A DNA stretch of 64,000 nt. Source: Actinomycetota bacterium (GTDB lineage: Bacteria; Actinomycetota; Coriobacteriia; Anaerosomatales; D1FN1-002). The stretch spans positions 3,629 to 67,628 of the forward strand of contig JBBIJK010000006.1 in assembly GCA_037445995.1 (NCBI GenBank). The letters run 5' to 3'. Of the stretch, positions 904 through 48,443 are shown in pieces. The notes under the pieces are model-generated. The model was not told the DNA's origin, did no database searches, and was given only the letters and a program-made list of their open reading frames with translations. Position numbers and translations under genes: made by a program. Numbering within the stretch: position 1 is the stretch's first letter; every line of letters begins with the position of its first letter.

Positions 904-3900
904 CTATCCGCCGAGCAGGACGACTCTGACCCTGCGCGTCCCGCCGTCCGTCTCCAGGGGCACTCTGGGTTCGGGGAGGCGGACGCCGTCGAGTTCCACG
1001 TACGCGACGCCCCGGTTGACCCCTCGGGGGTTCTCCACCTCGACCTCGTAGAGGGTCCGTTCGTTGCGGTATCGCATCGAGTAGCCGCTCCAGGTCTTGG
1101 GGATGCACGGGTCGACCACCATGTGGCGTCGCCCGCCCTCGGAGACGACGTCCAGTCCCAGGAGGTGCCTCACGATCACGTGGTGATACCAGGAGGCCGA
1201 CCCGGTGTACCAGGTCCAGCCCCCCCTTCCCACGTGCGGCTCGACGGCGTAGACGTCCGCCGCCACGACGTAGGGCTCCACCTTGTACCTGTCGACGTCC
1301 TCGGGCGTGAGTGAGTGGTTCACCGGGTTGATGAGGTCGAGCAGGGAGTGAGCTTCGTCTCCGTCCCCCATCATCAGGTGTGCGAGAGCCACCCAGACGG
1401 CTGCATGGGTGTACTGGCCGCCGTTCTCGCGTACGCCGGGCACGTACCCCTTGATGTACCCGGGGTCCTGCTCCATGCGGTCGAAGGGCGGGGTCAGCAG
1501 CATGACTACCCCGTCGTCCCATCTGACCAGGCGCTGCTCCACGGCATCGAGGGCCCTCATCGCGCGCGCGGAGTCGCCCGAACCCGAGATCACCGCCCAC
1601 GCCTGAGCGATGGCGTCTATGCGGCACTCCTCGGCCGACTTGCTCCCCAGAGGGGTTCCGTCATCGAAGTACGCGCGGCGGTACCACGAGCCGTCCCAGG
1701 CTTCTCGCTCCGCCGCCGCCACGACCTTTGCCGCGAACGCCCTCCATGAGGCCGCCCGCTCGGCGTCGTCCCGCTCCTGGGCGACTGTCGCGAACCGCCC
1801 GAGGACGACATCGAGGAACCACGCCATCCAGACGCTCTCGCCTTGTCCGCCCAGTCCGACGCGGTTCATGCCGTCGTTCCAGTCACCACCGCCCATCAGC
1901 GGCAGTCCGTGGGGGCCGGTGCCCAGCGACGCTTCGATGGCGGCGACACAGTGACCGTAGACCGACGCCTGCCGCTCTGAGCAAGAGGGCTGGATGTAGG
2001 CGTCTTCCGCGCCTTCTTCCAGTGCCGGACCTTCGAGGAATGCGACGGTCTCATCCAGGACCGTCGAGTCTCCGGTCGCGCGCAGGTACTCAGCGACGAT
2101 CAGGGGCAGCCAGAGCCGGTCGTCCGTGAAGCGGGTGCGCACCCCGCGCCCGCTGACCGGCTGCCACCAGTGGAGGACGTCACCTTCGGGGAACTGCCGT
2201 CGCGAGGCTTCCACGATGTGGTCTCTCACGAGGTCGGGACGGACCGCGAGCAGCGCGAGGCAGTCCTGCAGCTGGTCTCGGAATCCAAAGGCGCCCGACG
2301 ACTGGTACGTCGCCGTTCGGCCCCAGAACCGGCAGGACAGAGCCTGGTAGAGCAGGTGCGAGTTGACCAGCGCATCCATCGCCGGGTCAGGCGTCGAGAC
2401 CTGGATGGCGTCCAGGTCCCGCTCCCAGGCGTCCTTCGCGGCATCGAGCGCGCTGGAGATCGCGCCTGGCTCGCGAAGGGAGCTGACGAGGTCCCGAGCG
2501 AGATCGAGGATCGTCGTCTGACCGAGCAGGAAGCTGACCTCCGACGTCTGACCCGGACCGATCTCAACGGGCACCATGAGCGCCCCGCAGTTGTCGTGAT
2601 AGCGCCCGGTCGTCCCGCACAGCGAGGCGGCGCGCATGGCTGCGGGAGACGCGGGGTCGCCGTTCCTCCCGAGGAACTCCGTGCGGCTGGCCGTGTATGA
2701 GTGCAGCGGCTTGTCGCATGCGAGGAAAGCGCTCCTCCCGGGGAAGTCGTCGTTGAAGTGATTGTGCGCGGTCAGCATCGCGGCCCCGGGGTCCCACCAC
2801 GTGACCACCTGCTGGTTGGCCCGGCTGCGCGACGAGCCCAGGACCCACTCGACCATGTGCGTCACGGTCAGGCGGCGGGACCGCTCCGAGAGGTTGGTGA
2901 GCCGAAGGCGCGCGATCCGGACGGGCTCATCGGGCGGGACGAACCAGGTGAGTTCGTGCGCGATGCCTCTGGTGGTGTGCTCGAACACCGAGTAACCCCG
3001 GCCATGCCTGACGACATAGGGGTCCTCGTCGCGAACGGGGAGCGGTGTGGGCGACCATAACTCCCCAGTGTCCTCGTCCCGCACGTAGGTCAGCTCGCCC
3101 GACCCGTCCGACACGGGGTCGTTGTTCCACGTGGTGATGCGGTTCTCGTGGCTGTTCTCCGCCCAGGTGGTGCCGATCCCCGCCTCGGAGACCATGGTCC
3201 CGAAACGCGGCCTTCCGATCACGTTCACCCATGGGGCCGGAGTGGTGGCGTCGCCCTCCAGCACGACCACGTACTCTCTGCGGTCCAGGTCGTAGCCGCC
3301 AAGCCCGTTGTCGAACGCCAGTTCCGGCCTGTCGAACGGCGCCTTGGGGGCCCGCCTCGCGCGATCAGGCGGATCGGCGAGGGTAGTCAGCGCGGGCGCC
3401 GGCTCCGGCCGCCTGCCGCGTTGCCCGAGCTGCATCGCGATCGTGCCGCCATCACCCTCGATGGTGGCCCGCGCGACCGACACCAGCAGGTTCAGCACGT
3501 CGGGGTGCATCTGGTCGGCCCGGCGCAGGAAGACCCCGCCGGGCTTGTCCGCCAGCTGCAGCGCGTGGCCGGTACGGACAAGGAGCTTCAGGCGCTCGTC
3601 GAGATCGTCAGCGTATCCCGTGGGGCGCGTGTTCAGGACGACCAGGTCGGCGACGAGCCCCTTGTGCCGCCAGTACTGATGCGCCAGGAGGGCCTGCCTC
3701 ACCATGGGGGCGTCCTCCAGCCGGTCGATGCGGACCAGCAGGATGGGCAGGTCGCCGGAGATGCCGAGAGACCACAGCCCGTCCATCCGAAGCCCGTTCT
3801 CCACCGGCGTCTTGACCTTGAGCGGCGAGAACGGGTCCGTCAGAAGCAGGCGAGAGGCCAGCCGCTGGAAGACGACGGCTTCTTCGGAGGTGATCCCGAG

Positions 3901-6900
3901 GTCCCGCAGCTCTACCTGGCCGGCCGTCCATGCGAGGTCAGCCGCCCTTTGAGCGGCCGTGATGGAGGCGTACTTCTCGACAAGCGCCTCCGCTTCCTCG
4001 CGGGTGTCCGCGCCCCCGGTGGCGAACACGAGTCTCGTGGTCCCGCCCGGAGGCACCCTGACGGTCCCCCTGGACGCGCAGCATGGGTCTATCACGGCGC
4101 CCAGGGTGCCCGACAGGGACCCGGGGGCCGAGGCGAGGGCGGCGGGGTCGTGCACGCTTCGAAGCCGGCCGATGAATCGAGCGCGATCGGTCTCGCATGA
4201 CCAGTCGCAGCCGGTCTCCGGCTCGCACGCCAGGACGTGGAACCCCCATGGCCGGGCCTCCTCCGAGGACCGCGGACGCCGCGAGAACAGGACGGCCCGG
4301 CTGTCGGGGAGCGCCTCGGTCTCGACGAAGAGGTTCGAGAAGGCTCTGTGAGCCTGATCGGCGCCCTGTGGGGACAGGGCGATTTCGAAGTAGGAGGTGA
4401 CCTCGAGATGGCGGGTGTCGCGGCCGTGGTTCGTGAACGCGAGCCTCCGGACCTCCACGTCGTCCTCGGGAGAGACGATCACCTCGCAGCGGGTGTCGAT
4501 GTCACCGTCGCGGCGCCAGTATTCCGCCTTGTCCTCCGAGAAGGTGGCCCGGTACTCGTCGCCGGGGACCCGGAGCGGCTGGAAGGCGGCGGACCAGCGG
4601 TCTCCGGACGCGATGTCACGGACGTAGAGGAAGGTGCCCCAGCAGTCCCGCGTGACGTCCTCCCGGTACCGGGTGACGGCGAGACCCGCGCGACGCGAGT
4701 AGCCGCCCCCGGCGTTCGTCACCATGACCGAGTAGCTGCCGTTGGACAGGAAGTGCGTCGCGGGGGTGTAGGTGCCGGTGTCGGAGTACGAGCGGCCCGC
4801 GATTGCGGGGAGCTCTCGAACGGAACCCGCGAGCCGCACCTCCTCGACGTGGGGCGTCGTCAGTTGCGCGTGGCGGGGCACGCGTTCCTGCAGCAGCAGC
4901 TCGGCCGAGCGCACCATCGGGTCGGCGTGGAAGCGCTCTCTCATCCGGTACCCGGTGACCTCGTTGGCAAGGGCGACCATGCTCATCCCCTGGTGGTGGG
5001 CGAAGTACGCTCGCACGACGGCTCTCTTGGCGCCAGCGGGGATCCGGGCCGGGGTGTAGTCGATCGACTCGTAGAAGCCGTAGCGCCCCTCGCCTCCGCG
5101 GAGCCGCAAGGCGTCAAGGTTCGCGAGCGCCGCCTCGCGGTCTATCTGAAGAGCGAGGACGCTCGCGTAGGGCGCGATGACGACGTCGTCCGACAGTCCA
5201 CGCTTGAGCCCGAGTCCGGGGACCCCGAACGCCTGATACTGGTAGGTTAGGTTGACATCCTTGGCGTTGAAGGCGGATTCCGACACGCCCCAGGGCACGC
5301 CGCGTTGTCGGCCGTACTGGATCTGCCTCGCGACCACCGACGCGTACGTCCGGTCGAGCAGCGTGTCGGGCCATGTCCTCATCACCAGGAGCGGCATCAG
5401 GTACTCGAACATGGACGCGCTCCACGAGACTAGCGCGTGACCCGAGCCGGTGTCGGTGATGGAGCGGCCCAGCCGGAACCAGTGGTCCTGCGGAACGTCG
5501 CCCTTGGCGACCGCGAGGAAGCTCGCGAGGCGGCACTCCGAGGCCAGGATGTCGTAGTACGAGCCGTCGAGCCGACCCTCCGCGGTGTTGTATCCGATCG
5601 AGAAGAGGCGCCGGCTGGGGTCGTACAGCGGCCGGAAGTCGGTGTGCTCCCACATCTCGCGCGCGATGTCGCTCTGGAGCCGCATCTCGGCCAGGACGCT
5701 CGCGCACAGGGGGCGCTTGTCCCGGACACCGGCGGCCACGGCGGCGGCCCACACCGACGCCCGGCCGCATCCATCGTCCCCTTCGGCGTCTCGCGAGGCC
5801 AGCTCGTCTAAGGCGTCGAGAGCGCCGTCGAGCCCCTCGCCCAGCCCGACGATGGAGGGCGTGTGCTCGAGCAGCGGCTCGAGGTCCTCGTAGCGAGGGC
5901 AGGAGCGGACCCTGGCGGGGATGTCGGCGATCATCTCGGCCCAGGGCGCCATCTGCGAGAGGGTGCGCCCGGGCGCGCGCAGCGACTCCGAGACCATCCT
6001 CAAAGCCTCCGCCGCGATCCCGCCGTCCGCGAGGCGGGCTGTCAGTCCGTCGAGGTCCTCCGCGACCGACTCGAGCGACTCGAGCAGCACCCACCACTCA
6101 CCCAAGGTCGCCGGGGGCGGCTCGAGGGAGACGTGGCGTCGCACCTCCTCGAGGACCGCGGCGGCCTCTGTCGCGACTGCGGACCGCTCCGGCGGCGCCA
6201 GACCCGCGAGGTCTTCCAGCGCCAGGACGACCGTGTCGGAGATGCCGTCCACGAGTTGGGGGCCGAGCAGTGGGGCCTCGGAGGCCTCGAGCAGGCCGAC
6301 GCGGAGAACGAGAAGGTGTCCGGCCAGGTTCCCCGAGTCCACTGTGGAGACGTACGCGGGGCGGAGCGGTTCGAGGGTCAGGGTGTCGTACCAGTTGTAG
6401 AAGTGCCCCTCGTGGCGTTGCAGGCCGGCCAGCGAGTTGAGCGTCAGGCGCGTCCGCTCGAACGCCTCGGGTGCGGTGATGTACCCGAGGTCGTACGCGG
6501 AGAGGTAGCTGAGCAGCTGAAGGCCCACGTTGGTCGGCGACGTGCGGTGGGCCACCTCGCCCCCGGGGTCTTCCTGGAAGTTGTCGGGCGCCAGCCAGTG
6601 GTCCCGCTGCGTGACGAAGGTGTCGAAGAACCGCCAGGTGCGCCTCGCGATTCTGCGGATCTCGGCCGCCTGACACTCGTCGGGTCCGACGGTCCTGGGA
6701 GGCGTCGGGCGCGAGACCCACCAGGCCGCCCACGGCGCTGCGGCCCAGACCGCGGCGAACGCCGCCAGCACCGGGATGCGAGCCGCATCGAGGAACGCCG
6801 CCGGGACAAGGGCGGCCACGATCGCGAGCGAGGAGGGCGCGATCCGCCGGACCGAGCCCGCGAGCGAGGAGCCCAAGCGGCGCTCGGCGTCCGCGGCGGT

Positions 6901-9669
6901 CTCCCACTCGAGCAGCCCCCGCTTCGAGACCGTCATCCGCCACAGTGCGCGGCCGATGGCGTCCACGTGCAGCTGTGCCTGGTGGGGGAGCATGGCCAGG
7001 GTGAGGAGGGCCCTGGCCGAGTCTCGGCCGAAGTCCCGCCACGCGGTCCTCGCGGAGGTCGAGAAAGAGACGGATTTGGGCGGGAACAGCACCGAATCGG
7101 CCAGCGAGAAGTACGCGGGGAAGAAGACGGTCAGGAGCATGGCCAGCGCCCAGAGCCCTCCGCCGCCGGGCAGCAGGTACCATCCCGACACGGTCAGCAG
7201 CAGGACCGAGGGGGCGAACAGGCTCCTGCGGAGGTTGTCGACGATCTTCCACCGGTGAAGGCCGGAAAGCGGGTTGGCCTCCGTCCCGCTGGCGGTGGGG
7301 ACTCGTGGGGCCAACCACGGGGCAGTCTGCCAGTCACCTCGCACCCAGCGGTGCACCCGGGCCGCCTGGGCCGCATAGGTGGCCGGGTAGTCGTCGTAGA
7401 CCTCCACGTCGGACACGAGCGCCGTCCGGAGGTAGCAGCCCTCGAGCAGGTCGTGGGAGAGGAGCTGGTTGTCGGGCATGCGGTCTTCGAACACGGCGTC
7501 GAAGACGTCGACCTCGAAGATCCCCTTGCCGGTGAAGGACCCTTCGCCGAACACGTCCTGGTAGGTGTCCGACACCGCGCCCGCGTAGGGGTCGATGCCG
7601 GTGACCCCGGAGTACAGCCATGCGAACATCGAGCGGCCTGACGACGGCAGGGACATCCCCACCCTGGGTTGGACCAAGCCGTACCCGGCGGTCACCCGTC
7701 GCGCTCCGCGCTCCAGTCTGGCGCGGTTGAGGGGGTGCGCGATCGTCGAGACGAGCTTGGCCGCGCCGTCTCGCGGCAGGATCGTGTCCGCGTCCAGCGT
7801 GATCACGAACGTGACCAGAGGCTCGAACGACGTGTCCCCTTCCACATGCGAGAAGCTCGTCCCCTGCGAGCCCCGCAGACGCCTCGTTAGTTCGACAAGC
7901 GCCCCTCGTTTGCGCTCCCACCCCATCCATAGGCCTTCGCCGCTGGCGAACCGCCTTTCTCGCAGGTACAGAAGGAACGGGGTCGTCCCGTGCTCTCGCA
8001 GGTAGCGGTCGTTCAGCTCCGCTACGCCTCTTCGGGCGGCTTCCACGACCGGCGCGTCCCCCGGGACGCTCTCCTGCGGGGCCGACCGCAAGTCGCCCAG
8101 GAGCGCGAAGCGCAAGTTGGGGTCGGGGTTGGCCAGATAGGCGCGCTCGAGGTTGTCCACCACCGACTGGGCCGCCGGGGCCGAGGACAGGAGAGCGGGC
8201 ACGACCACGAGCGTGCGGTGGGTGTCGGCGATCGGCTTCCGGAAGTCGAGCTTGGGCAGGACGCGAGGCGGCCACAGCGAGGCGGCCAGCCGGTTGACGA
8301 TGTTGAGGGACAGGTCGCTCATGGGCACGATAGCGAGCGTCATCACTGCGGCGACCACGCCCAGAGAGGCGCCGGAGGCGGCGACGAGTCCGGCCAGCAG
8401 CGCCGCGAGCGCCAGAGTGTTGCCCGCCAGGATGCCCCAGTAGATCGCGCCCCTGTGCGAGAGGGGGCCGCGATACAGGTACTCGCGTGCGTGAGGGCGG
8501 TAGCCGACCGATCGCTCCAGCGAGTACCGCCCCTTCCCGATGAGGTAGCACCCGACGTGCGCTCCCACGGTGTCGGCGGCGTCACGCCTCAGGCCGTCGA
8601 GCGACCAGCTGATGACGGCTTCGGCGAGCTCGATCTCGCTCATCGGGCAGCGGCGGGCCATGCCCTCGAGCGCGTGGCGGTAGCGGTCCCGGCTCCGGAA
8701 GTCCATATGCTGGTACACGCCGGCGGGATCCTCGGACAGGATGTGTTCGACCAGGCAGCACCGCTCGAAGAACGTCTGCCAGTCCAGCGCTTCGAGGAAG
8801 CGTATCGCGGTGATGGAGTTGGCGACCGACACCTGGTCGGCCGCCTGCTCCTGCTGCTCGGCCCGGACCATCTCCTCGAAGGTTCGCCCGGTCCTCGTGA
8901 CCCTGCGACCGAGCCACGACGTCATCTCCGCCGTGACGTCCTCGCGGCCTTGGAGACGCTGGCCCAGCCGTCGGAGGAAGACCTGCTCGGCGTGGTGCCG
9001 CCGAGCGTCCAGCCGCGCGACCGCGGCGGCCGCGTCGTCTGCGCCAGCCCGGGCGGCGACGATGAGCTCGTCGGCCGCGTCGTCCGCCGCCGACTCCTCG
9101 ATCTGGGTCATCGCGACGCGATGTGCTATGCGCCGCACGTTCTCCACCAGTCCGATGCGCAGCATTATCGGCAGAGCCCACACTTCGCCGATCGAGAGGG
9201 GCGAGCCCTCCTGGAAGCCCATCACGTAGCGGACGAGGTGCTCTTCATCGAATCTGGAGTCGGTGTGGGTGAGCAGGTAGGTGACCGCCTCGAAGACGCG
9301 CGGGAATCCGGCGAGGTCCCCCGACAGGAGGCGTGGGAGCTCGATGCTGTAGTGCGCCGGCAGGTCGCGGCGAGCCGTGCGGATCTGCGTCTCCACAAGG
9401 TAGTGGTTGTCCAGCAGCCACTCGGCCGCCGGCGAGACGGCTCGTTGCTCGCGGGCCGCGGCGGCAAGCTGATCGTTGCACCAGGCCACGTGACTGGCGG
9501 CCTCGTCCAGCAGCTTGAGCAGCGGGTTGGCCGGCGCGAGGCCCTTGACCGTCCAGGCCTGGGTTCCCGCGAGGGCCTCCGCGGCCTTTGCCGCGGCCTC
9601 CGCTGACAGGATGTTCCCTCGCATGGGCGCGGGGACGTCTCCTGTGTATGGCGAGTAGGTTCCGGCCAT
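904..9669 (-). CDS. cyclic beta-1,2-glucan synthase-like giant glycosyltransferase/phosphorylase (NdvB/ChvB/Cgs architecture)
   Basis: Uninterrupted 2921-aa ORF. The N-terminal region contains AEWLLDNHYLVETQIR. A TM-flanked GT-A domain carries ITLDADT (DxD). The middle has an alpha-barrel region (DNFQEDPGGEVAHRTSPTNVG). The C-terminus is a GH94 phosphorylase-like region. Confidence 0.85.
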   Translation of the reverse strand: MAGTYSPYTGDVPAPMRGNILSAEAAAKAAEALAGTQAWTVKGLAPANPLLKLLDEAASHVAWCNDQLAAAAREQRAVSPAAEWLLDNHYLVETQIRTARRDLPAHYSIELPRLLSGDLAGFPRVFEAVTYLLTHTDSRFDEEHLVRYVMGFQEGSPLSIGEVWALPIMLRIGLVENVRRIAHRVAMTQIEESAADDAADELIVAARAGADDAAAAVARLDARRHHAEQVFLRRLGQRLQGREDVTAEMTSWLGRRVTRTGRTFEEMVRAEQQEQAADQVSVANSITAIRFLEALDWQTFFERCCLVEHILSEDPAGVYQHMDFRSRDRYRHALEGMARRCPMSEIELAEAVISWSLDGLRRDAADTVGAHVGCYLIGKGRYSLERSVGYRPHAREYLYRGPLSHRGAIYWGILAGNTLALAALLAGLVAASGASLGVVAAVMTLAIVPMSDLSLNIVNRLAASLWPPRVLPKLDFRKPIADTHRTLVVVPALLSSAPAAQSVVDNLERAYLANPDPNLRFALLGDLRSAPQESVPGDAPVVEAARRGVAELNDRYLREHGTTPFLLYLRERRFASGEGLWMGWERKRGALVELTRRLRGSQGTSFSHVEGDTSFEPLVTFVITLDADTILPRDGAAKLVSTIAHPLNRARLERGARRVTAGYGLVQPRVGMSLPSSGRSMFAWLYSGVTGIDPYAGAVSDTYQDVFGEGSFTGKGIFEVDVFDAVFEDRMPDNQLLSHDLLEGCYLRTALVSDVEVYDDYPATYAAQAARVHRWVRGDWQTAPWLAPRVPTASGTEANPLSGLHRWKIVDNLRRSLFAPSVLLLTVSGWYLLPGGGGLWALAMLLTVFFPAYFSLADSVLFPPKSVSFSTSARTAWRDFGRDSARALLTLAMLPHQAQLHVDAIGRALWRMTVSKRGLLEWETAADAERRLGSSLAGSVRRIAPSSLAIVAALVPAAFLDAARIPVLAAFAAVWAAAPWAAWWVSRPTPPRTVGPDECQAAEIRRIARRTWRFFDTFVTQRDHWLAPDNFQEDPGGEVAHRTSPTNVGLQLLSYLSAYDLGYITAPEAFERTRLTLNSLAGLQRHEGHFYNWYDTLTLEPLRPAYVSTVDSGNLAGHLLVLRVGLLEASEAPLLGPQLVDGISDTVVLALEDLAGLAPPERSAVATEAAAVLEEVRRHVSLEPPPATLGEWWVLLESLESVAEDLDGLTARLADGGIAAEALRMVSESLRAPGRTLSQMAPWAEMIADIPARVRSCPRYEDLEPLLEHTPSIVGLGEGLDGALDALDELASRDAEGDDGCGRASVWAAAVAAGVRDKRPLCASVLAEMRLQSDIAREMWEHTDFRPLYDPSRRLFSIGYNTAEGRLDGSYYDILASECRLASFLAVAKGDVPQDHWFRLGRSITDTGSGHALVSWSASMFEYLMPLLVMRTWPDTLLDRTYASVVARQIQYGRQRGVPWGVSESAFNAKDVNLTYQYQAFGVPGLGLKRGLSDDVVIAPYASVLALQIDREAALANLDALRLRGGEGRYGFYESIDYTPARIPAGAKRAVVRAYFAHHQGMSMVALANEVTGYRMRERFHADPMVRSAELLLQERVPRHAQLTTPHVEEVRLAGSVRELPAIAGRSYSDTGTYTPATHFLSNGSYSVMVTNAGGGYSRRAGLAVTRYREDVTRDCWGTFLYVRDIASGDRWSAAFQPLRVPGDEYRATFSEDKAEYWRRDGDIDTRCEVIVSPEDDVEVRRLAFTNHGRDTRHLEVTSYFEIALSPQGADQAHRAFSNLFVETEALPDSRAVLFSRRPRSSEEARPWGFHVLACEPETGCDWSCETDRARFIGRLRSVHDPAALASAPGSLSGTLGAVIDPCCASRGTVRVPPGGTTRLVFATGGADTREEAEALVEKYASITAAQRAADLAWTAGQVELRDLGITSEEAVVFQRLASRLLLTDPFSPLKVKTPVENGLRMDGLWSLGISGDLPILLVRIDRLEDAPMVRQALLAHQYWRHKGLVADLVVLNTRPTGYADDLDERLKLLVRTGHALQLADKPGGVFLRRADQMHPDVLNLLVSVARATIEGDGGTIAMQLGQRGRRPEPAPALTTLADPPDRARRAPKAPFDRPELAFDNGLGGYDLDRREYVVVLEGDATTPAPWVNVIGRPRFGTMVSEAGIGTTWAENSHENRITTWNNDPVSDGSGELTYVRDEDTGELWSPTPLPVRDEDPYVVRHGRGYSVFEHTTRGIAHELTWFVPPDEPVRIARLRLTNLSERSRRLTVTHMVEWVLGSSRSRANQQVVTWWDPGAAMLTAHNHFNDDFPGRSAFLACDKPLHSYTASRTEFLGRNGDPASPAAMRAASLCGTTGRYHDNCGALMVPVEIGPGQTSEVSFLLGQTTILDLARDLVSSLREPGAISSALDAAKDAWERDLDAIQVSTPDPAMDALVNSHLLYQALSCRFWGRTATYQSSGAFGFRDQLQDCLALLAVRPDLVRDHIVEASRRQFPEGDVLHWWQPVSGRGVRTRFTDDRLWLPLIVAEYLRATGDSTVLDETVAFLEGPALEEGAEDAYIQPSCSERQASVYGHCVAAIEASLGTGPHGLPLMGGGDWNDGMNRVGLGGQGESVWMAWFLDVVLGRFATVAQERDDAERAASWRAFAAKVVAAAEREAWDGSWYRRAYFDDGTPLGSKSAEECRIDAIAQAWAVISGSGDSARAMRALDAVEQRLVRWDDGVVMLLTPPFDRMEQDPGYIKGYVPGVRENGGQYTHAAVWVALAHLMMGDGDEAHSLLDLINPVNHSLTPEDVDRYKVEPYVVAADVYAVEPHVGRGGWTWYTGSASWYHHVIVRHLLGLDVVSEGGRRHMVVDPCIPKTWSGYSMRYRNERTLYEVEVENPRGVNRGVAYVELDGVRLPEPRVPLETDGGTRRVRVVLLGG

Positions 9670-9846
9670 GCCGCCCGTCCGCTCGTAGCGCGACCCCGCG
9701 CCCGGAGGTCCCCCGTGCCGGGGCGCCCTCTCCCGCAGGTGCTATTCTCGCACGGTTCCCGACTCGCGCAGCCGCGCGCGGCACGGCGTTTGCGGGGCGG
9801 ATGCCTGTAGGGGCATTCTTTCCGGCTCGAGACATCGGAGGGCGAA

Positions 9847-10551
9847 GTGGCATCCAGAAGGTGGATGATCTGGGCGGCAATCGCCGTGGCCGTGGCGGGG
9901 GTGGGCTATCTCGTGTCCCGGCCCGCAGGCCCGCAAGGCGGTGTCGTCTCGGGCGATGAGCTCGCGAGCCTGTTCGCCGGTGGTGCGCGAGTCATCGACG
10001 TGAGGACCCCCATCGAGTACGAGGGTGGCCACATCCCCGGGGCCGAGAACGTCCCGGTCGACCAGCTTCCCGGGGCGGCGGGGGTCTGGGACCGCGAGGT
10101 GCCGATCGCCGTGTACTGCCTGTCGGGTGAACGCTCCGCCAACGCGGCGGGCTACCTCACGGCGCAGGGGTTCACGAGGGTCTACGACCTGGGCGGTGGC
10201 ATCGGTTCGTGGAAGGGCGATCTTGTGACCGGCGCCCAGGCGGGCGATCGCCCCGGAGCCATCGCCACCTCCGGCAGGCCCCGGATGATCGAGTTCAGCT
10301 CAGACACTTGACCCGCCTGCGTCGAGATGAAGCCTGTGGTCGACAGGCTGAAGCAGGAGTATGAGGGCAAGGTCGATTTCACCATCCACCTGGACGGCGC
10401 CGACGAGGAGGGCGAGAGGATCGCCGCGATGATCGGGGTCAGGTACGTCCCGACGTTCGTGTTCGTGAACTCTGACGGCTCCATCAAGGGGACGGACATA
10501 GGGGCGATCGGCGAGGCCAAGATGCGGCAGCGGCTCGATTCGTTGAAGTAG
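9847..10551 (+). CDS. membrane-anchored rhodanese / thioredoxin-like fusion protein; candidate selenoprotein (TGA 10309-10311 read as Sec)
   Basis: GTG start 5 nt after GGAGGG, then an N-terminal TM helix. The rhodanese domain has the active-site loop VYCLSGERS. ORFs 9847-10311 and 10327-10551 are in the same frame, separated only by a TGA. Read-through gives ...MIEFSSDT-U-PAC-VEMKPVVDRLKQEY...RYVPTFVFV..., a complete thioredoxin fold with UxxC. Confidence 0.6.
10316..10357 (+). promoter_or_regulatory. candidate bacterial SECIS hairpin
   Basis: Lower stem CCTGC (10316-10320) pairs with GCAGG (10353-10357). Upper stem AGCCTG (10331-10336) pairs with CAGGCT (10344-10349). The apical loop is UGGUCGA, and the loop lies 26-32 nt 3' of the UGA. 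Confidence 0.4.
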
Positions 10552-11019
10552 GTCGAGGTGATGTGCGCCCCGCGTGCGGGTATCCACCACATGAGGGTCG
10601 CGACCGCGGACCGCGGCGGCGGGCCCGATGTGCAACCGTCCGGCGGTCACCGGAGGTGGACCTATCAGGGTGGACTCGCAGATGAGCGAGATTTCGGCCG
10701 GGACGGCAGATGAAGGCTCCGGGTCGGCGTGAGGTTCAACGCGTCAGGTTGTTTGCGCAAAGCACTGCGTTACTGCTTCACGGGTGAATGATCGGCCCGC
10801 CACCGGAGACCGGGCATAAGCTCTTGGCAACAGCGGGTCCGCGCCCGAGAGGGCGGAAACTCACTCGGGCGGCGGACGGCTAGGATGGCCCTTTGGAGGG
10901 GCGCCTCGGGCGGTGCGAAGGCTGTCCCGGCCCATTCTCGTCTCGACATCGGTCCACCCGGGCGATGACCCACGGCGGTCTTGCCGGGCGAGGCGATGCT
11001 ATACTCGCCAGCGCGCGAC

Positions 11020-11095
11020 GGGGACGTAGCTCAGCTGGGAGAGCGCGGGCTTTGCAAGCCTGAGGTCGTCGGTTCGATCCCGATCGTCTCCACCA
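11020..11095 (+). tRNA. tRNA-Ala (anticodon UGC), CCA encoded
   Basis: 76-nt cloverleaf. The acceptor stem GGGGACG/CGTCTCC carries the G3:U70 alanine identity pair. The anticodon loop is TT-TGC-AA, the T-loop is GGTTCGATCC, and the 3' end is ACCA. Confidence 0.95.
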
Positions 11096-11099
11096 AGAC

Positions 11100-11145
11100 A
11101 ACGAGCAGGTGGCCGGCCCGTATCGGGTGCCGGCCACTTGTCGTT
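11100..11145 (+). terminator. GC-rich hairpin immediately 3' of tRNA-Ala
   Basis: GTGGCCGGC (11109-11117) pairs with GCCGGCCAC (11129-11137), with extended flanking pairing. No U-tract follows, so terminator function is uncertain. Confidence 0.35.
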
Positions 11146-23846: not shown

Positions 23847-23880
23847 GCCCGGCTACGTCCTCAGTGGTTCGCGAGGATGG

Positions 23881-24060
23881 TCAGTCCTCGACAAGTTCGG
23901 CGGCTGGGGTCACCAGATGGCACAGCCAGCACGGGCCGGGCGGGTGCCGCTCCGGGACCGGCTGTTCGGGATGCACGGGGCGCACGATCACGTGCGCCAC
24001 CGCGAGTATCACCGCCGCGAACAGTGCGATCGACGCCGCTGCTTTCAGGACCTGCCTCAT
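23881..24060 (-). CDS. 59-aa putative single-pass membrane peptide (below ORF-track cutoff)
   Basis: An ATG...TGA ORF encoding MRQVLKAAASIALFAAVILAVAHVIVRPVHPEQPVPERHPPGPCWLCHLVTPAAELVED. It has one hydrophobic helix and lies in the gap between the usp gene and the metalloprotease gene. Confidence 0.25.
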   Translation of the reverse strand: MRQVLKAAASIALFAAVILAVAHVIVRPVHPEQPVPERHPPGPCWLCHLVTPAAELVED

Positions 24061-24143
24061 CGCCCGCGCCTTTCTCGCGGCGGCACGCGTTTCGCTGGCC
24101 GCTCGATGGTGTGCTCAGACGCCCGCGTGCCGATAATACAGGG

Positions 24144-26918
24144 GTGAGATTGCCCGGACGCCACAGATCGTCGGGGAGCCGGGCCGCCTTGGTCGCGGCC
24201 ATGTTTGCGTTCGCGCTCTCGCTGCCCACCGTCGCACGCGGTCTGTCCGTGGAGATGTCGCTCGAGGACCGCGTGCTCGCCGCGCACACGGTCGTGCTCG
24301 CCGACATCGTGTCGTCGCGCGTTCGCACCGGAGGTTCGTCGCGGGGGCCTGCGATCGAGACGGTCGTGGAGCTGTCGACGATCTCGGCGTTGAAGGGCAA
24401 GCCGCCGCGCCGCATCCCGGTGGTGTTGCCAGGCGGCGCGACCGACGACCTCGTCGTCTGGTCGCCCGACACCCCCGCCTTCGTGGTCGGCCGTCGGGCG
24501 CTCGTCTTCCTCGATGCGGGCGGACGGGTGATCGGGGGCACGGACGGGCGCCTGGATGTGGCCTCCGGGATGGTCGCCGTTGAGCGGCAGTCCTGGGCGC
24601 ACGTTCGCGACCGGGTGCTCGTCGCGGCGGGCAGGCTGGAGGGCCCGGTGCTCTCGGCGCCCGCCAGCGGCGTGTCGGCCGCTTCCGTGTCGGTGGCCGG
24701 GGTCCCCGTGATATCCGGGATCACGCCCGGCAGCGCATCTGCCGGCACCCGCAGCAGGGTGACCGTCTCGGGATCGGGTTTCGGGGTGTCCAGGGGGTCG
24801 GGCAAGGTCAGTTTCTTCTACCGTGACGGCCGTGACCCCATACAGGCCGCGAGGTATGTGAGCTGGAGCGACACCGCCATCACCGTCGAGGTGCCGACGG
24901 CCACCGTCAACGGGTACCAGGCCGCGGCGGGCAGCGGGCCGGTCACGGTGACCGACTCCTCTGGCCGGACTTCGCCGGGACACGACTTCGTAGTGACTTT
25001 CGCCTTCGGGGGGGTGAAGTGGGCGGGGACCTCCATGACCTACCGCGTCGCCGCTCCGAGTGCTTCGTTCGAGACCATGGTGGACGCCGCGGCTTCGACA
25101 TGGAGCGCCGTGTCAGCTTTCCGCATGCACGACGGCGGGCCGATAGCGGCCCCGACGGCTTCCACCAACGACGTCTACTGGGACGCTTTGGCCACCGGCG
25201 ACCTCGGCCGGGCATACATCAGCTACATGCCAGGGACCGCCACCGGCACGATCGTCTCTTGCGACATCGCGCTCAACACCGCCCATCCTTGGGGTGACGG
25301 CACGGGTGACACCTTCGACGTGCAGTCAGTGGTTCTCCACGAACTCGGTCACTGGCTCAACCTGCGAGACCTGTACGGCGCGGGCGACGTCGCCGAGGTC
25401 ATGTACGGAATCGGCACGCGGGGCTCACGCAAGCGCGAGCTCCACGCCCACGATATCGCGGGCATCCGCTACATCTACGGATCCTCGGATTCGCATACGC
25501 CGACGAGCAGCGTCAGCGGCGTCCCGTCAGGCTGGACCTCGCAGACGGTCGTAGCGTCCATCTCCGCTGCCGACGACAGCTCAGGGGTGCGGCGAACCTA
25601 CTACAGGGTGGGGTCGGGACCCGCGTACATCTACTCCGGCCCCGTGTCGTTTTCGACGGACCAGGACACGACGCTCTGGTACTGGTCGGAGGACAACGCC
25701 GGGAACGTCGAAACAGCGCGTTCGGCGGCCATCCGGGTGGACAAGTCGCCACCGGTGACGTCGGCCGACGTCAGGACCTTCTACGCCGACGCCGCCACCA
25801 TCACGTTGTCCGCCGCCGACGGCGGGTCGGGGGTCGCCTCGACGGCCTGGAGGCTCAACGGGGCCGAGTGGCGGGCGGGGGCCGTCGCGGGCGCCGCCTC
25901 GCTTGGGACGCACACGCTGGAGTACCGGTCGACCGACGCCGTCGGCAACCGGGAGTCCGCCAGGACCGCCACCTTCACGGTCGTCGCCGGCCAGACGACC
26001 GATGTCGAGCGCTTGGCGGGTGCGGACAGGTACCTCACCGCGGTCAAGGTGTCGGAGAGCTCCTTCGCCACGGCGGCGGCCGTGGTGCTGGCGACGGGGC
26101 AAGGGTTTCCTGATGCCCTGGCCGCGGCGGGACTGGCCGGCGCGCTCCGGGCCCCGGTGATGCTCGCGCGCCCTGACGAGGTTCCCGCGGAGGTGGTGGC
26201 CGAGGTTCGCCGGCTCGGCGCGTCGCGAATCGTGGCCGTCGGCGGGGCTCGCGCGGTGTCTGATCGCGCGCTCGAACGGGCCGCCGCCGGAGCGGGAGTC
26301 AGATGGAGCCGCGTCTGGGGCGCGGATCGGTACGGGACGGCTGCCGCGGTCGCGGCCGAGATCGTCCGGCTGCGCGGCGCGGTGCCGGTGGTGTTCCTCG
26401 TTCGCGGCGATGGCTTCGCGGACGCCCTTGCGGCCTCACCGTACGCCTACTCCCAGCGCGCCCCGATCCTGCTGACCCGCATGGACGGTGCGCCGGAGGT
26501 CACTGTGGCTGCGGCGCGCGGCTCCGGAGCGTCCGAGGTGGTGGTTGCCGGAGGTCCCGCCGTGCTGTCCGACGCGGCGGTGACGGGGCTGGGTCTTCCC
26601 TGGACGCGGGTCCACGGCTCCAACCGGTACGCCACGGCCGTGGCGCTGACGAGGCACGCGATGTCTCGCGGGTGGACGACGCCGACCTCCGTGGGGGTCG
26701 CCACCGGCGAGCGCTTCCCCGACGCGTTGTCGGGCGGCGCGGCGATGGGGTCGGTCGGGGGGGCCTTGCTGCTCACCAGGAGCGCCCACCTGACCGAGGA
26801 GTCGTCGACGTTCCTGGTCGACTGCATGCCGGCGATCCGCTTCATACGGGTGCTGGGTGCTGAAGCGGCCGTCTCGCCACACTGCTTCGCGGTTCTCTCG
26901 GCGCTTGGCGCGCCCTAG
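24144..26918 (+). CDS. secreted cell-wall-associated metzincin metalloprotease (IPT/TIG + HExxH + Ig-like + 3x CWB2 repeats)
   Basis: The GTG start gives the signal peptide RLPGRHRSSGSRAALVAAMFAFALSLPTVARG. An IPT-like segment (PVISGITPGSASAG) follows. The zinc site is HELGHWLNLRD with an Asp third ligand as in snapalysin, plus the Met-turn VMYG. Three CWB2-like repeats are present (RLAGADRY..., RVWGADRY..., RVHGSNRY...). Confidence 0.8.
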   Translation: MRLPGRHRSSGSRAALVAAMFAFALSLPTVARGLSVEMSLEDRVLAAHTVVLADIVSSRVRTGGSSRGPAIETVVELSTISALKGKPPRRIPVVLPGGATDDLVVWSPDTPAFVVGRRALVFLDAGGRVIGGTDGRLDVASGMVAVERQSWAHVRDRVLVAAGRLEGPVLSAPASGVSAASVSVAGVPVISGITPGSASAGTRSRVTVSGSGFGVSRGSGKVSFFYRDGRDPIQAARYVSWSDTAITVEVPTATVNGYQAAAGSGPVTVTDSSGRTSPGHDFVVTFAFGGVKWAGTSMTYRVAAPSASFETMVDAAASTWSAVSAFRMHDGGPIAAPTASTNDVYWDALATGDLGRAYISYMPGTATGTIVSCDIALNTAHPWGDGTGDTFDVQSVVLHELGHWLNLRDLYGAGDVAEVMYGIGTRGSRKRELHAHDIAGIRYIYGSSDSHTPTSSVSGVPSGWTSQTVVASISAADDSSGVRRTYYRVGSGPAYIYSGPVSFSTDQDTTLWYWSEDNAGNVETARSAAIRVDKSPPVTSADVRTFYADAATITLSAADGGSGVASTAWRLNGAEWRAGAVAGAASLGTHTLEYRSTDAVGNRESARTATFTVVAGQTTDVERLAGADRYLTAVKVSESSFATAAAVVLATGQGFPDALAAAGLAGALRAPVMLARPDEVPAEVVAEVRRLGASRIVAVGGARAVSDRALERAAAGAGVRWSRVWGADRYGTAAAVAAEIVRLRGAVPVVFLVRGDGFADALAASPYAYSQRAPILLTRMDGAPEVTVAAARGSGASEVVVAGGPAVLSDAAVTGLGLPWTRVHGSNRYATAVALTRHAMSRGWTTPTSVGVATGERFPDALSGGAAMGSVGGALLLTRSAHLTEESSTFLVDCMPAIRFIRVLGAEAAVSPHCFAVLSALGAP

Positions 26919-27899: not shown

Positions 27900-28574
27900 A
27901 TGGAGACCGCCGCATCTCGGCCCGCACGGCGGGACATGCGCCAGCATCGTTACCCCCTCGGCGAGGAGATCGCCAACTCCGTCACCCACGGCGTCGGAAT
28001 CGCGTTGTCCGTCGCGGCTCTCGTGCTCCTTGTGGCGTTCGCCGCAGCAAGCGGCGACGGGTTCCGCCTGGCCGGCGCGATCGTCCTCGGGGTCGCGCTG
28101 GTGCTGGAGTACTCCGCGTCCACCCTCTACCACGCGCTGTCGCACCCGCGAGCCAAGCACGTCTTCAAGATCCTCGACCACGCCGGCATCTACGTCCTGA
28201 TCGCGGGTACGTACACGCCCTTCACGCTCGTCACGCTCCGCGACTCCGGCGGTTGGTGGCTGTTCGGCGCGGTATGGGGCCTGACGGTGGTCGGCATCGC
28301 GACGGAGGCGTTCTGGGCGTACCGTCCGCGGTGGCTGTCGGTCGCTATCTACCTGGGCATGGGCTGGGCGGTCGTCTTCGCCCTCGGGCCCCTGCTCGCG
28401 GGGCTGGACCGGGCGGGGGTGGCCCTGCTCGTGGCAGGCGGGCTGTGCTACACCGTTGGCACGCCCTTCTACGTGTTCAAGCGGGTGCCGTACTTCCACA
28501 TGGTCTGGCACCTTTGGGTGATCGCGGGAAGCGCCTGTCATGTGCTTACAGTGCTGCTGTACGTCGTGAGATAG
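27900..28574 (+). CDS. hemolysin III / PAQR family membrane protein
   Basis: ATG start 5 nt after GGAG. Seven TM helices. Motifs are EEIANSVTHGVG, STLYH and HMVWHLWV. Confidence 0.9.
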   Translation: METAASRPARRDMRQHRYPLGEEIANSVTHGVGIALSVAALVLLVAFAAASGDGFRLAGAIVLGVALVLEYSASTLYHALSHPRAKHVFKILDHAGIYVLIAGTYTPFTLVTLRDSGGWWLFGAVWGLTVVGIATEAFWAYRPRWLSVAIYLGMGWAVVFALGPLLAGLDRAGVALLVAGGLCYTVGTPFYVFKRVPYFHMVWHLWVIAGSACHVLTVLLYVVR

Positions 28575-28654
28575 GCTCCTCCCGTCGCGGCCGGTTCGCG
28601 CACCCTCGCGCCGATGGCCGGGCGAAGGCCCATGCAAGCGAAGCGGAGGACGAT

Positions 28655-29803
28655 GTGGCTGCCAAGGTGGCGATCGTGCGCTGTGACGACTACGCTGAGA
28701 GCAACGTCAGCGCTGCGGTCGATCGCGGGTTCGCCCTGCTGGGGGGTCCCGAGCGGTTCGTGACCGAGCCCGGCGAGCGCATCCTTCTCAAGCCCAACCT
28801 CCTTGTCGCTTCCGCCCCGGAGTCCTGCGTCACGACGCATCCGACGGTGTTCGGAGCGGTCGCCCGCGTCCTTCGCGACGCTGGCGCCCATCTGACCTAC
28901 GGCGACTCGCCCGGCTTCGGTTCTACGGCCGGCGTGGCCCGCAAGGCGGGACTGGCGCAGATCGCCGAGGAGATGGGGATCGGGCTCGCTGACTTCAGGG
29001 AGGGTCGCGAGGTCGACAGCGAGCGAGCCAGGCTCGTTCGTACGTGGCATCTCGCGAACGGGGTGCTGGACTCCGACGGCATCGTGAACCTGCCCAAGAT
29101 GAAGACGCACGGGCTGACGCGTCTGACCGGCGCGGTGAAGAACCTGTTCGGTTGCGTGCCGGGCCTGCTCAAGGGCGAGTTCCACGCGAGGATGACCGAC
29201 GTGGACCTGTTCTCGCAGATGTTGGTGGACCTTGCCCTCACCCTGCCCGCGCGGCTGCACGTCATGGACGCGGTGGTCGCGATGGAGGGGAACGGTCCTC
29301 GCTCGGGGGACCCGAGGCCTGTTCGAGCGCTGCTCTTCTCGGAGGACCCGGTGGCGCTCGACGCCACGGCTTGCCGCCTGATGTCGCTCGACCCCCTCCT
29401 GGTGGGGACCTGCCTGCACGGGCAGGCGTTCGGCCTTGGCTCGATGGACGCCCTCGAGTACCTCGGCGACCCGCTCGAGGAGTTCGTGGTGCCGGACTTC
29501 GTGGCCAATCGCAGCCACGCGTCGACCACCGGTTCCGGTCGGGTCTCCCGGTTCATGCGGCGATGGGTGGTCCCGAAGCCGGTAATCAGGCCCGCGCTGT
29601 GCACCGCGTGCGGGACCTGCGTCCACGTCTGTCCGCTGGACCCCAAGGCGGTCGACTGGACCACCGCTGGGGGTTCGGGGGCCGGTATGCCGCCGGAACA
29701 CGACCACTCGCGGTGCACGCGGTGCTACTGCTGTCAGGAGATGTGCCCGGAGCGCGCGATAGAGATCGAGGTGCCGCTGTTGGGGCGCCTCATCCATCGC
29801 TGA
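28655..29803 (+). CDS. DUF362 domain protein with C-terminal 2x[4Fe-4S] ferredoxin domain
   Basis: GTG start 5 nt after GGAGG. The DUF362-like N-terminus is VAIVRCDDY...ILLKPNL. The Cys clusters are CTACGTCVHVCP and CTRCYCCQEMCP. Confidence 0.8.
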   Translation: MAAKVAIVRCDDYAESNVSAAVDRGFALLGGPERFVTEPGERILLKPNLLVASAPESCVTTHPTVFGAVARVLRDAGAHLTYGDSPGFGSTAGVARKAGLAQIAEEMGIGLADFREGREVDSERARLVRTWHLANGVLDSDGIVNLPKMKTHGLTRLTGAVKNLFGCVPGLLKGEFHARMTDVDLFSQMLVDLALTLPARLHVMDAVVAMEGNGPRSGDPRPVRALLFSEDPVALDATACRLMSLDPLLVGTCLHGQAFGLGSMDALEYLGDPLEEFVVPDFVANRSHASTTGSGRVSRFMRRWVVPKPVIRPALCTACGTCVHVCPLDPKAVDWTTAGGSGAGMPPEHDHSRCTRCYCCQEMCPERAIEIEVPLLGRLIHR

Positions 29804-29901
29804 GGAAGCCGCCGACCTCGGCTCTGGCCACGGATCGGTACGCCAGCGCTCGAGCCCGGAACGGTTATTGCTAGCGACCATCTCGGCGGGAGGTGTGTCG
29901 C

Positions 29902-30249
29902 ATGGCGGCTCATGGCACCCACAGGGGCGGCGCTCACCGCTGGCGACGGCGAAGGACCTCGGGGCCGCCGACCTCGGCTCTGGGCAGGTGGGCCTTCGGG
30001 CTTCTCCTCGCGTTCGCGCTGTTCGCCACGATCTTCTTGCTCGCAGTGGGCCTCGGTGCGCCCGTCGGCGGGGGCTGGACGTTCTATGTCACCGCCGGAG
30101 GTTCCGCGGCCACTGCCCTGGCGGCGGCCCTCGCAGGGGTCTTGGCGGTGTGGCTGAGCCGCGAGCGCTCGCCTATCGTCTACTTCGCGATCGCGGCGGG
30201 CCTGTTCGTCTCGCTGTTCATCGCCGTCGAGCTGCTGTTCCCGGCCTGA
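29902..30249 (+). CDS. small membrane protein, function unknown
   Basis: ATG start 8 nt after GGGAGG. A basic N-terminus is followed by three hydrophobic helices. Confidence 0.45.
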   Translation: MAAHGTHRGGAHRWRRRRTSGPPTSALGRWAFGLLLAFALFATIFLLAVGLGAPVGGGWTFYVTAGGSAATALAAALAGVLAVWLSRERSPIVYFAIAAGLFVSLFIAVELLFPA

Positions 30250-30312
30250 TCTTGGCGCGGCTCGGGAGGATCGGGCCTTCAGACAGCCACCGTAGGGTGA
30301 CCGAGCCCGGCC

Positions 30313-31494: not shown

Positions 31495-31726
31495 GGGGAT
31501 CGCCTCCGTGCGGTGCTGGATGCGCGCCCCGTGCCGGCGAGGCGGGATGAACGACACCGAGACTAACATCTGCCGTGCCGCGAGGCCACTTCTCGCGAGG
31601 TAACAGTTGTGGCATCCAAACCGCGCCGTCCCGGCGCGGCCGCTGACGGCCACGGCGGGGTATGCACACAGCATGGAGCGGTGTGCGGCGCTCCGGAGTG
31701 CCCGGGGCGACGAAGGGGGGAATCGC

Positions 31727-32119
31727 ATGCGGACCTACGTAACAGAGGAGTTGTTCGCCACCGGACCCGATCGTGTAGGGCTTCTGGCGTCAGTGAGCGC
31801 CGCCGTGGCTGATGCCGGGGTGAACATCGTGGCCATTGCCGGCTACCAGAAGGACGGGCAGGGTGAGTTCATCGTGCTGACCGGCGATGATGACGCGGCG
31901 GAGGCCGCCCTGCTTCGCGCCGGGTTCGAGGTGGCTCGCAGGCCGGTGGCCGTCGTCGAGCTCGACGAGACCGTCGGGGCGCTGGCCGAGGTCGCGGCCC
32001 GGGCTGCCGACGCCGGGATCGACATCCACTGGGTGTTCGCGACCAGCGGTGACGGGAGGCACGCCAAGGCGGTGTTCCGCTGCGACGATGCGGCCGCGTT
32101 CGCGGACGCGGTCGGCTGA
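31727..32119 (+). CDS. ACT domain-containing protein
   Basis: 130 aa, ATG after GAAGGGGGG. It has two beta-alpha-beta-beta-alpha-beta-like halves (GLLASVSAAVADAGVNIVAIAGY; GALAEVAARAADAGIDIHWVFA). Confidence 0.65.
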   Translation: MRTYVTEELFATGPDRVGLLASVSAAVADAGVNIVAIAGYQKDGQGEFIVLTGDDDAAEAALLRAGFEVARRPVAVVELDETVGALAEVAARAADAGIDIHWVFATSGDGRHAKAVFRCDDAAAFADAVG

Positions 32120-32152
32120 GGCGCCAGGATCGCCGAGGCTCTGCCGCGGGCG

Positions 32153-33007: not shown

Positions 33008-33181
33008 GCGGGGAGTATCGCATCCGCGGCTCCGCGGAGCGAAGCGGCCGTCGTCGACAACAGGGGTCGGCGCGAAGCCCGCGTGCCCACCGGTCGTTTG
33101 TCGCCGTGTCCGTAGCGCGCGCCGGAAGGGAAGACTCCTCCAGATAGGAGCGGTCCCCAGGCTCTCCCGGGAGGCAACAGG

Positions 33182-44884: not shown

Positions 44885-44983
44885 GGCTTGCCCCCTGCCC
44901 GCGCTCCGGTCATCGGTGTCCAGCATACTACGGCTTGGGTCGTCGACCCTCTCCGCGCCCCGTCGCAGCGATATCATCTGCTT

Positions 44984-48416: not shown

Positions 48417-48443
48417 CACACCGATACGAGAGGAAACACTGAC

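Follow-up and report, generated by a model that had tools for sequence, protein, structure and literature searches.

A conserved stem-loop behind an in-frame UGA as a probable bacterial SECIS element in a rhodanese-thioredoxin gene of an Actinomycetota bacterium

The DNA analysed here, a stretch of 64,000 nucleotides (nt) from contig JBBIJK010000006.1 of an Actinomycetota bacterium (GCA_037445995.1; hereafter the window, with its first letter as position 1), carries a gene in which a rhodanese domain and a thioredoxin-fold domain are encoded in one frame on the two sides of a UGA codon. The 19-nt stem-loop AGCCUGU-GGUCG-ACAGGCU located shortly downstream of this codon (10331-10349) was judged, with a probability of roughly 0.87, to be a bacterial selenocysteine insertion sequence (SECIS) element serving the UGA at 10309-10311 for selenocysteine (Sec). 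An earlier note, made from the letters of this DNA alone, had proposed a SECIS element at this site, and the comparison of orthologous genes supported the proposal in the presence of TGA in 83 of 84 sequences, a conserved stem of 6-7 base pairs (bp), a GGUCG loop, a fixed distance of 26 nt and compensatory changes in the stem. The element belongs to the known kind of bacterial SECIS (bSECIS), and it is located in a putative selenoprotein family that has not been annotated as such.

Conservation of the in-frame UGA

The open reading frame (ORF) at 9847-10311 ended with ...MIEFSSDT-TGA, and the same frame then ran on as PACVEMKPVVDRLKQEYEG... to the TAG at 10549-10551, the UGA being in frame with both the upstream ORF and the downstream continuation. 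In the read-through product, an N-terminal hydrophobic anchor was followed by a rhodanese domain (Pfam Rhodanese, residues 37-124, 64 bits, above the cut-off) and then by a thioredoxin-fold domain (Pfam Thioredoxin, residues 139-229, 37.9 bits with a cut-off of 23.5). The rhodanese domain is PspE-like with its own conserved active-site Cys, and it lies behind a signal-anchor in most members of the family. The UGA aligned with the first Cys of CPSC in the homologues P0005 and P0121. Public gene calls gave two ORFs of 154 residues (9847-10311) and 74 residues (10327-10551), and the gene was split likewise in every call examined. The protein P0122, catalogued as a full-length form, was actually a TGA form with a perfect hairpin; its TGA had been translated as Trp in the JGI call, at odds with its DNA under translation table 11.

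Used as the query of a protein search, the read-through product matched dozens of proteins of about 152-187 residues that have only the rhodanese domain and all end exactly before the CxxC position (...EFYTDW, ...FSSTS, ...FSGST and others), along with one full-length Cys form (P0005, ...DWCPSC...). A profile search with the thioredoxin part detected 723 proteins at E <= 1e-8, and 118 of the top 120 matches were fragments of 70-76 residues (nearly all 74-75) starting after the CxxC, typically at a Met six codons past the UGA. These short proteins are the orphaned downstream halves of split genes. The few source names attached to the relatives were Coriobacteriia, Coriobacteriaceae and metagenome-assembled genomes (MAGs) of Actinobacteria.

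Orthologous DNA was gathered as 10 loci by exact look-up and 80 loci from a metagenome scan with an alignment of the thioredoxin domain, which gave 84 distinct sequences; one of the two peptide patterns used to gather loci (M[KA]PVVD) overlapped the peptide encoded by the hairpin. The codon at the first Cys position of the CxxC was TGA in 83 of these sequences and TGC in the remaining one. A genome-collection scan with the full-length alignment, which relied on a generic rhodanese motif ([GA]HI[PEA]GAxN[VI]P), recovered 80 unrelated rhodanese loci (L001-L080), none of which had the CxxC/UxxC site of the rhodanese-thioredoxin proteins. A genome-wide reassignment of TGA was ruled out, as TGA was the commonest ordinary stop in the window and terminated 28 of its 45 predicted genes. 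Members without the rhodanese domain were also found (L141:700-1104, L162:100-950, L175:1001-1429 and L176:232-642), in which a signal- or lipoprotein-like N-terminus directly preceded the thioredoxin UxxC domain. Two such genes stood in tandem in L162, each with its own UGA and hairpin, and the hairpin of L141, with two mismatches, was the weakest in the set.

It was also considered that the UGA is a true stop and that the hairpin aids termination and re-initiation at the AUG at 10327, which would yield a 154-residue rhodanese and a 74-residue thioredoxin fragment. Such an arrangement would agree with the public annotations, all of which call two ORFs, and with the Met at codon +6, 16 nt after the UGA, in 82 of the 84 sequences. 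The 74-residue fragment, however, would lack the CxxC and the first beta-strand, both of which are encoded upstream of the ATG. The Met was also retained in Cys forms, whereas three Sec forms had CTG or GTG in its place, and the upstream ORFs all ended exactly at the Cys-equivalent position. Moreover, Pro +1 and Cys +3 were invariant (84/84) while the synonymous sites varied (CCC/CCG/CCA/CCT), which indicates that the stretch from the UGA to the next ATG is translated. We therefore regard termination with re-initiation as highly improbable.

Covariation of the stem

The alignment A3 of the orthologous sequences comprised 90 columns, and the single helix predicted on it by RNAalifold was the upper stem (columns 36-41 with 47-52 in the consensus). 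None of the sequences had an insertion or deletion separating the UGA from the hairpin, and the spacing was 26 nt in all 83 Sec forms. The 7-bp stem was paired in 95.7% of the cells, as compared with 23-47% when the 3' partners were slid by one to three columns, and none of 500 shuffles matched the observed pairing or covariation score. The stem length in the orthologues was 6-7 bp.

Two base pairs of the stem accounted for the highest mutual information among all column pairs, namely U10335-A10345 (columns 39:49, 1.0 bit) and G10336-C10344 (columns 40:48, 0.64 bit). The former was U-A in 52 sequences, C-G in 30, G-C in one and broken in one, and the latter was G-C in 66, C-G in 16, G-U in one and broken in one; double-sided swaps were present in 31 and 16 sequences, respectively. 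When these states were placed on a neighbour-joining tree built from about 250 flanking nt with the hairpin masked, which was noisy, the minimum number of state changes was about 14 for 39:49 and 3-5 for 40:48, and the swaps were spread over the tree. On the evidence of this tree, the swaps have clearly occurred many times. Covariance across orthologues, which the earlier note had suggested as a check, was thus found as compensatory double changes at two stem pairs, at synonymous and even at non-synonymous sites.

The loop was GGTC[G/A] in 79 of the 84 sequences, and the remaining five had TCGTG or TCGTT, which extended the stem around a GUG or GUU loop. The mean energy of the hairpin in the 83 Sec forms was -11.5 kcal/mol versus -6.1 kcal/mol for synonymous recodings of each, and 96% of the orthologues were at or below -7.5 kcal/mol.

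The third-highest mutual information (0.58 bit) was obtained for columns 10:26 of A3, corresponding to positions 10306 and 10322 of the window, with T-A in 38 sequences and A-T in 28. In the protein, Trp at -1 goes together with Gln or Lys at +4, and Thr at -1 with Ile or Val there; the pair is probably a lineage signature because there were no neighbouring pairs to build a helix.

Folding of the window sequence

The segments quoted in the earlier note (CCTGC at 10316-10320, GCAGG at 10353-10357, AGCCTG at 10331-10336 and CAGGCT at 10344-10349) were correct in position and letters, and the minimum free energy (MFE) fold of 10309-10365, at -19.3 kcal/mol, contained both tiers of pairing that it had described. 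The upper stem of 6 bp with a 7-nt loop had to be redrawn, since U10337 pairs with A10343 to give 7 bp and the 5-nt loop GGUCG; the distance from the UGA held, with the loop beginning 26 nt after it. The features are listed in Table 1.

Table 1. Features of the predicted selenoprotein gene and its hairpin in the window
Feature	Position	Strand	Remarks
Host gene	9847-10551	+	GTG start; TAG stop at 10549-10551; 234-residue product if the UGA is read through
Predicted Sec codon, in-frame UGA	10309-10311	+	First position of the redox motif U-P-A-C (residues 155-158)
Lower tier, 5' half CCUGC	10316-10320	+	Forms in the window sequence; not conserved
Upper stem, 5' arm AGCCUGU	10331-10337	+	MFE fold; RNAalifold consensus
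Apical loop GGUCG (predicted SelB contact site)	10338-10342	+	26 nt after the UGA
Upper stem, 3' arm ACAGGCU	10343-10349	+	Pairs with the 5' arm; U10335-A10345 and G10336-C10344 covary
Lower tier, 3' half GCAGG	10353-10357	+	Not conserved

It had further been argued in the earlier note that strong structure is not expected within a coding sequence. This argument was weak at a G+C content of 69%, where dinucleotide shuffles of the 57-mer already folded at -13.7 +/- 2.7 kcal/mol; the native sequence had a z-score of -2.04, and 7 of 200 shuffles folded as well. The energy of the 21-nt hairpin was -11.6 kcal/mol, and recoding of the same peptide with the codon usage of the window gave an equally stable 21-nt hairpin in 9.7% of the trials. 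The excess over chance thus comes from the comparison of orthologues and not from the window sequence alone. The proven SECIS of Escherichia coli fdhF (NZ_AP018784.2, 4566521-4566642), analysed in the same way, had a z-score of -0.08 and was no better than its own shuffles. For SECIS elements, the folding statistics of a single sequence are of little use as a screen, and because the proven fdhF element itself scored so, the thermodynamic z-scores neither make nor break the case.

The lower tier CCUGC/GCAGG, which the earlier note had included in the hairpin, formed in the window sequence but was not conserved. It was paired in 57.9% of the cells across the orthologues and was missing from the RNAalifold consensus, and the native flanks folded no better than chimeric flanks swapped between sequences (-10.8 vs. 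-11.0 kcal/mol, p = 0.66). On these three results the lower tier was rejected as a part of the element. Some pairing around the hairpin is always available in G+C-rich coding sequence.

A promoter and terminator scan of 9600-11100 found nothing at the hairpin, by which an intrinsic terminator on either strand was ruled out. The same region contains a terminator-like hairpin with a T-rich tail at 10433-10462 (+), inside the thioredoxin domain; its T run derives from the T-F-V-F codons, and it is probably a by-product of coding.

Constraint on the RNA rather than on the protein

The codons forming the stem differed markedly from those used elsewhere in the same genes. The stem Pro (+8) was encoded by CCT in 52 sequences, CCC in 29 and CCG in two, while CCT accounted for about 6% elsewhere. 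Arg at +12 was AGG in 53 of 54 cases (16.5% elsewhere), Gly at +12 was GGG in 28 of 28 (19.6% elsewhere), and the second Val (+10) was GTC in 79 of 84 (43% elsewhere). These codons were also coupled, CCT occurring with AGG and CCC always with GGG, such that the synonymous site of Pro covaried with the non-synonymous Arg/Gly site. In 16 sequences Val/Asp (GUG...GAC) was replaced by Leu/Glu (CUG...GAG), which is the G-C to C-G swap as it shows in the protein. In VPTFVF, a peptide block that is invariant as well, synonymous variation was ordinary. These codon patterns place the constraint in the hairpin on the RNA and not on the protein.

These data bear directly on a by-product explanation, in which the hairpin arises incidentally where G+C-rich DNA encodes the conserved peptide K-P-V-V-D-R-L and is itself without function. 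The stability of 9.7% of the recodings, the energy of -13.7 kcal/mol of the G+C-rich shuffles and the retention of the hairpin in the Cys form L089, described below, speak for this explanation. Nevertheless, the pairing codons are rare ones, and the combination of CCT with AGG, for which a joint frequency of about 1% was expected, was seen in 52 of 84 sequences. The covariation of the synonymous Pro site with Arg/Gly was perfect and is unexplained by any constraint at the protein level, and the equally invariant VPTFVF varied freely at its synonymous sites. In our view, the covariation at synonymous sites already refutes the by-product explanation, to which we assign a very low probability.

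Two further codon preferences were observed near the element. The base 5' of the UGA was almost always U or G (codon at 10306-10308, ACU in the window; A3 column 12): the preceding codon was TGG in 39 sequences, and 43 of the other 45 ended in T (ACT 25, AGT 8, TCT 7 and GCT 3), while T-ending codons of Thr, Ser and Ala made up 5-8% elsewhere in the same genes. This constraint on the third base may be a context effect on the competition between Sec insertion and the release factor. The Leu codon just 3' of the stem (10349-10352; A3 column 54) was CTA in 14 of 84 sequences versus 0.7% elsewhere, for which descent within one clade or an additional constraint next to the stem may be responsible.

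Orthologues with cysteine

The one TGC form among the orthologues, L089, kept the complete hairpin, with all 19 nt and the same distance from the Cys codon, although its nucleotide identity to the nearest sampled Sec form was about 71%. Another Cys form, L175 (TGT), shared the peptide A-P-V-V-D-G-L with many Sec forms but encoded it by GCG CCG GUG GUG GAC GGU CUC, and it had no hairpin (-5.3 kcal/mol; z = +1.07 for the 60-nt context). Two distant Cys fusions of low G+C content, L172 and L174, likewise had no hairpin. Since L175 encodes the same peptide without the structure, the peptide does not dictate the hairpin, which also speaks against the by-product explanation.

The earlier note had held that a hairpin kept in Cys orthologues would merely reflect the amino-acid sequence. 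Such retention was found in one Cys form, L089, while the second, L175, with an identical PVVDGL, had lost the hairpin. For Cys homologues that descend from selenoproteins, remnant SECIS-like structures have been documented (PMC1794560, Fig. 4), and for this reason the retention in L089 is no valid refutation of a SECIS function. L089 resembles those documented cases as a Cys form that keeps the hairpin; the likeness concerns L089 and not the window, and L175 is already without a hairpin.

Retention in L089 could also be understood if the hairpin were a functional RNA with some other role, such as stabilising the mRNA or pausing translation for membrane targeting or folding. All 19 nt are kept there despite a divergence of about 29%, and no SelB gene was found in the 64-kb window, both of which would fit another role. 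On the other side, all 83 Sec forms have the same 26-nt distance to the UGA, the GG(U) start of the loop fits the bSECIS consensus and E. coli fdhF, and the hairpin was lost in L175 and is absent from the distant Cys fusions; the survival of remnant elements in Cys homologues is, moreover, documented (PMC1794560). A different role of the hairpin is thus considered improbable, though somewhat less so than the by-product explanation or re-initiation.

Comparison with known SECIS elements and selenoproteins

The bSECIS consensus of bSECISearch (Zhang and Gladyshev), as given in Fig. 2A of PMC13188914, specifies a loop of 3-9 nt, a stem of 4-16 bp and a distance of 16-37 nt between the UGA and the loop. 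As stated in the same source, one or both of the first two bases of the loop are G, most often as GG or GU, and the MFE is -7.5 kcal/mol or lower. The element in the window lies within all the ranges of this consensus as given there, with a loop of 5 nt beginning with GG, a stem of 7 bp, a distance of 26 nt and -11.6 to -19.3 kcal/mol. The stem-loop is placed, as in the consensus, in the coding region just downstream of an in-frame UGA aligning with Cys. GG followed by U began the loop in 79 of the 84 sequences, the other five having a longer stem closed by GUG or GUU, and the stem was maintained by compensatory changes in the orthologous genes, as is expected of selenoprotein genes. There was no conflict with the bSECIS model; the present element differs in being unusually invariant, with 19 nt nearly fixed across genes that are 40-55% identical in protein, and in lacking a conserved lower stem.

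The SECIS sequence of E. coli fdhF (L177) was confirmed against 5,419 E. coli genomes. In that element the G and U of the loop are the contacts of SelB, and the upper stem carries a bulged U. The two hairpins share the GGUC start of the loop (GCA-GGUC-UGC in fdhF and UGU-GGUCG-ACA here) and are both located inside the reading frame immediately 3' of the UGA. The spacing in fdhF is 18 nt (UGA-N18-GGUC), so that the loop in the window, at 26 nt, is 8 nt further away. Neither this spacing nor the bulged U was matched here, where the helix is a perfect one of 7 bp. The UGA is preceded by GUC in fdhF and by NNU or UGG in the present family, and the host of the fdhF element is a molybdopterin enzyme, unrelated to the thioredoxin fold.

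Thioredoxin-fold selenoproteins with UxxC are known, and those named in PMC13188914 include thioredoxin PF00085 UxxC, cd02966 thiol-disulfide isomerase-like UxxC and DsbA-like proteins, among others. The present family is similar in that Sec is predicted at the N-terminal Cys of the CxxC and Cys homologues exist; it differs in that a signal-anchor and a PspE-like rhodanese domain precede the thioredoxin domain in most members. The table passages of this 2026 review that were retrieved by term searches give five rhodanese selenoprotein forms, which have either a Sec motif assigned to a rhodanese model (PF00581/NF041203 UxxS, UxxG and CxU) or, in TsoB, UxxxxU in a rhodanese/DsbD fusion; a rhodanese-thioredoxin UxxC fusion is not among the five in these passages. 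No published description of the rhodanese-thioredoxin fusion as a selenoprotein was found, the literature coverage being incomplete and the novelty unproven.

The selenoprotein models TsoB, SaoT and rhodanese_LYCAU fell short of their cut-offs, as did all other NCBIfam models; scores against the curated cut-offs were 26.4 vs. 805, 20.1 vs. 65 and 25.5 vs. 115 bits. A weak NCBIfam match was obtained to the model rhoda_near_glyco (40.7 bits with a cut-off of 145). At the gathering threshold Rfam returned nothing except tRNA-Ala, and at E <= 10 over 10200-10500 only noise (snoZ206 and msiK) was obtained, the element matching no Rfam family.

Proposed function and its weight

If the stem-loop acts as the SECIS of E. 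coli does, a ribosome positioned at the UGA (10309-10311) would have the hairpin just outside its mRNA entry channel. The C-terminal winged-helix domains of SelB would then bind the apical loop (G10338, G10339 and U10340), and SelB, competing with release factor 2, would bring Sec-tRNA(Sec) to the A site. The expected product would be a membrane-anchored rhodanese-thioredoxin protein of 234 residues with the redox motif U-P-A-C. Loop binding by SelB and the incorporation of selenium are postulated here by analogy with the E. coli mechanism, and we infer that the host possesses the Sec machinery.

Several points weigh against a SECIS function. The single-sequence statistics are weak (z = -2.0, with 9.7% of the recodings as stable), and the hairpin taken alone is only modestly above chance. 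The orthologues are related, so the cell counts exaggerate the number of independent events, and the tree used for counting these events rests on about 250 nt. The pattern M[KA]PVVD may have slightly enriched the peptide of the hairpin among the loci gathered, although not any particular codons. The perfect hairpin of L089 at a divergence of about 29% is unexpected if the hairpin has long been neutral there, and it is the main observation for which a role confined to Sec insertion does not fully account. Finally, selA, selB, selD and tRNA-Sec were not found in the 64-kb window by ARAGORN, Rfam, and Pfam on 40 ORFs.

A broader interpretation, which we put forward tentatively and with less than even confidence, is that the element is the SECIS of a large and possibly undescribed family. 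At least 700 clusters at 90% identity were detected, and the family would consist of signal-anchored rhodanese-thioredoxin UxxC fusions and stand-alone thioredoxins. The RNA structure would dictate the evolution of the protein (Val/Asp to Leu/Glu, and Arg to Gly), and the U or G before the UGA would suggest a further, undescribed determinant of Sec recoding. If the SECIS reading of the hairpin is right, hundreds of mis-split database entries could be corrected by one rule, and the calls of 74-residue fragments would be meaningless. The family would also offer a clean natural case of RNA constraining protein, in which the Val/Asp, Leu/Glu, Arg and Gly states are coupled only via base pairing. 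The very uniform SECIS (a 19-nt core at 26 nt) from uncultured high-G+C MAGs would be useful for defining the recognition by the SelB of this lineage. To specialists a SECIS after the UGA of a UxxC motif is expected, the mechanism being that of textbooks; the value of the case lies in the large and universally mis-annotated family, the unusually clear coupling of RNA and protein and the synonymous constraint on the base before the UGA.

Other candidate sites and genomic surroundings

A scan of the window for TGA codons followed at 16-37 nt by a hairpin with a GGUC loop recovered the UGA at 10309, while for each of the other hits the frame was non-coding or the TGA a true stop. A window scan for in-frame TGA flanked on either side by coding-like G+C content at third codon positions yielded nothing but gene boundaries and hits in a wrong frame, and this negative is weak as the thresholds missed 10309 too. 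A search for tRNA-Sec in the window and 45 orthologous loci did not find it, the only tRNA there being tRNA-Ala(UGC). The protein at 61714-62772 with an AIRS domain follows a purF-like glutamine amidotransferase/phosphoribosyltransferase gene in a pur cluster, and owing to this placement in a pur operon it is most likely PurM rather than SelD.

The gene upstream of the host gene is a giant divergent one (904-9669, -) coding for a protein of the kind that is 2,478-2,953 residues long, with GH94, glycoamylase and GH94 b-supersandwich domains. This GH94 glucan-phosphorylase-like gene stood beside the family gene in all six loci with long flanks (the window, L084, L085, L087, L090 and the Cys form L089). 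Downstream, tRNA-Ala(UGC) was located at 11020-11095 (+) in the window, and it was also present in at least 12 of the scanned orthologous loci.

Elsewhere in the window, a protein of 1,013 residues with CW_binding_2 repeats was encoded at 23877-26918. The region 47106-52826 (+) contained a DsbD_2-cupredoxin fusion, two more cupredoxin-like proteins, a P-type ATPase with two HMA domains and a DUF7282 protein, which suggests handling of a metal, possibly copper. The regions 28253-34642 and 44660-46582 encoded a DUF362/4Fe-4S protein, a radical SAM/SPASM protein, an archaeal-type phosphoenolpyruvate carboxylase (PEPcase_2) and a RACo-type corrinoid activator, a gene content that points to an anaerobe.

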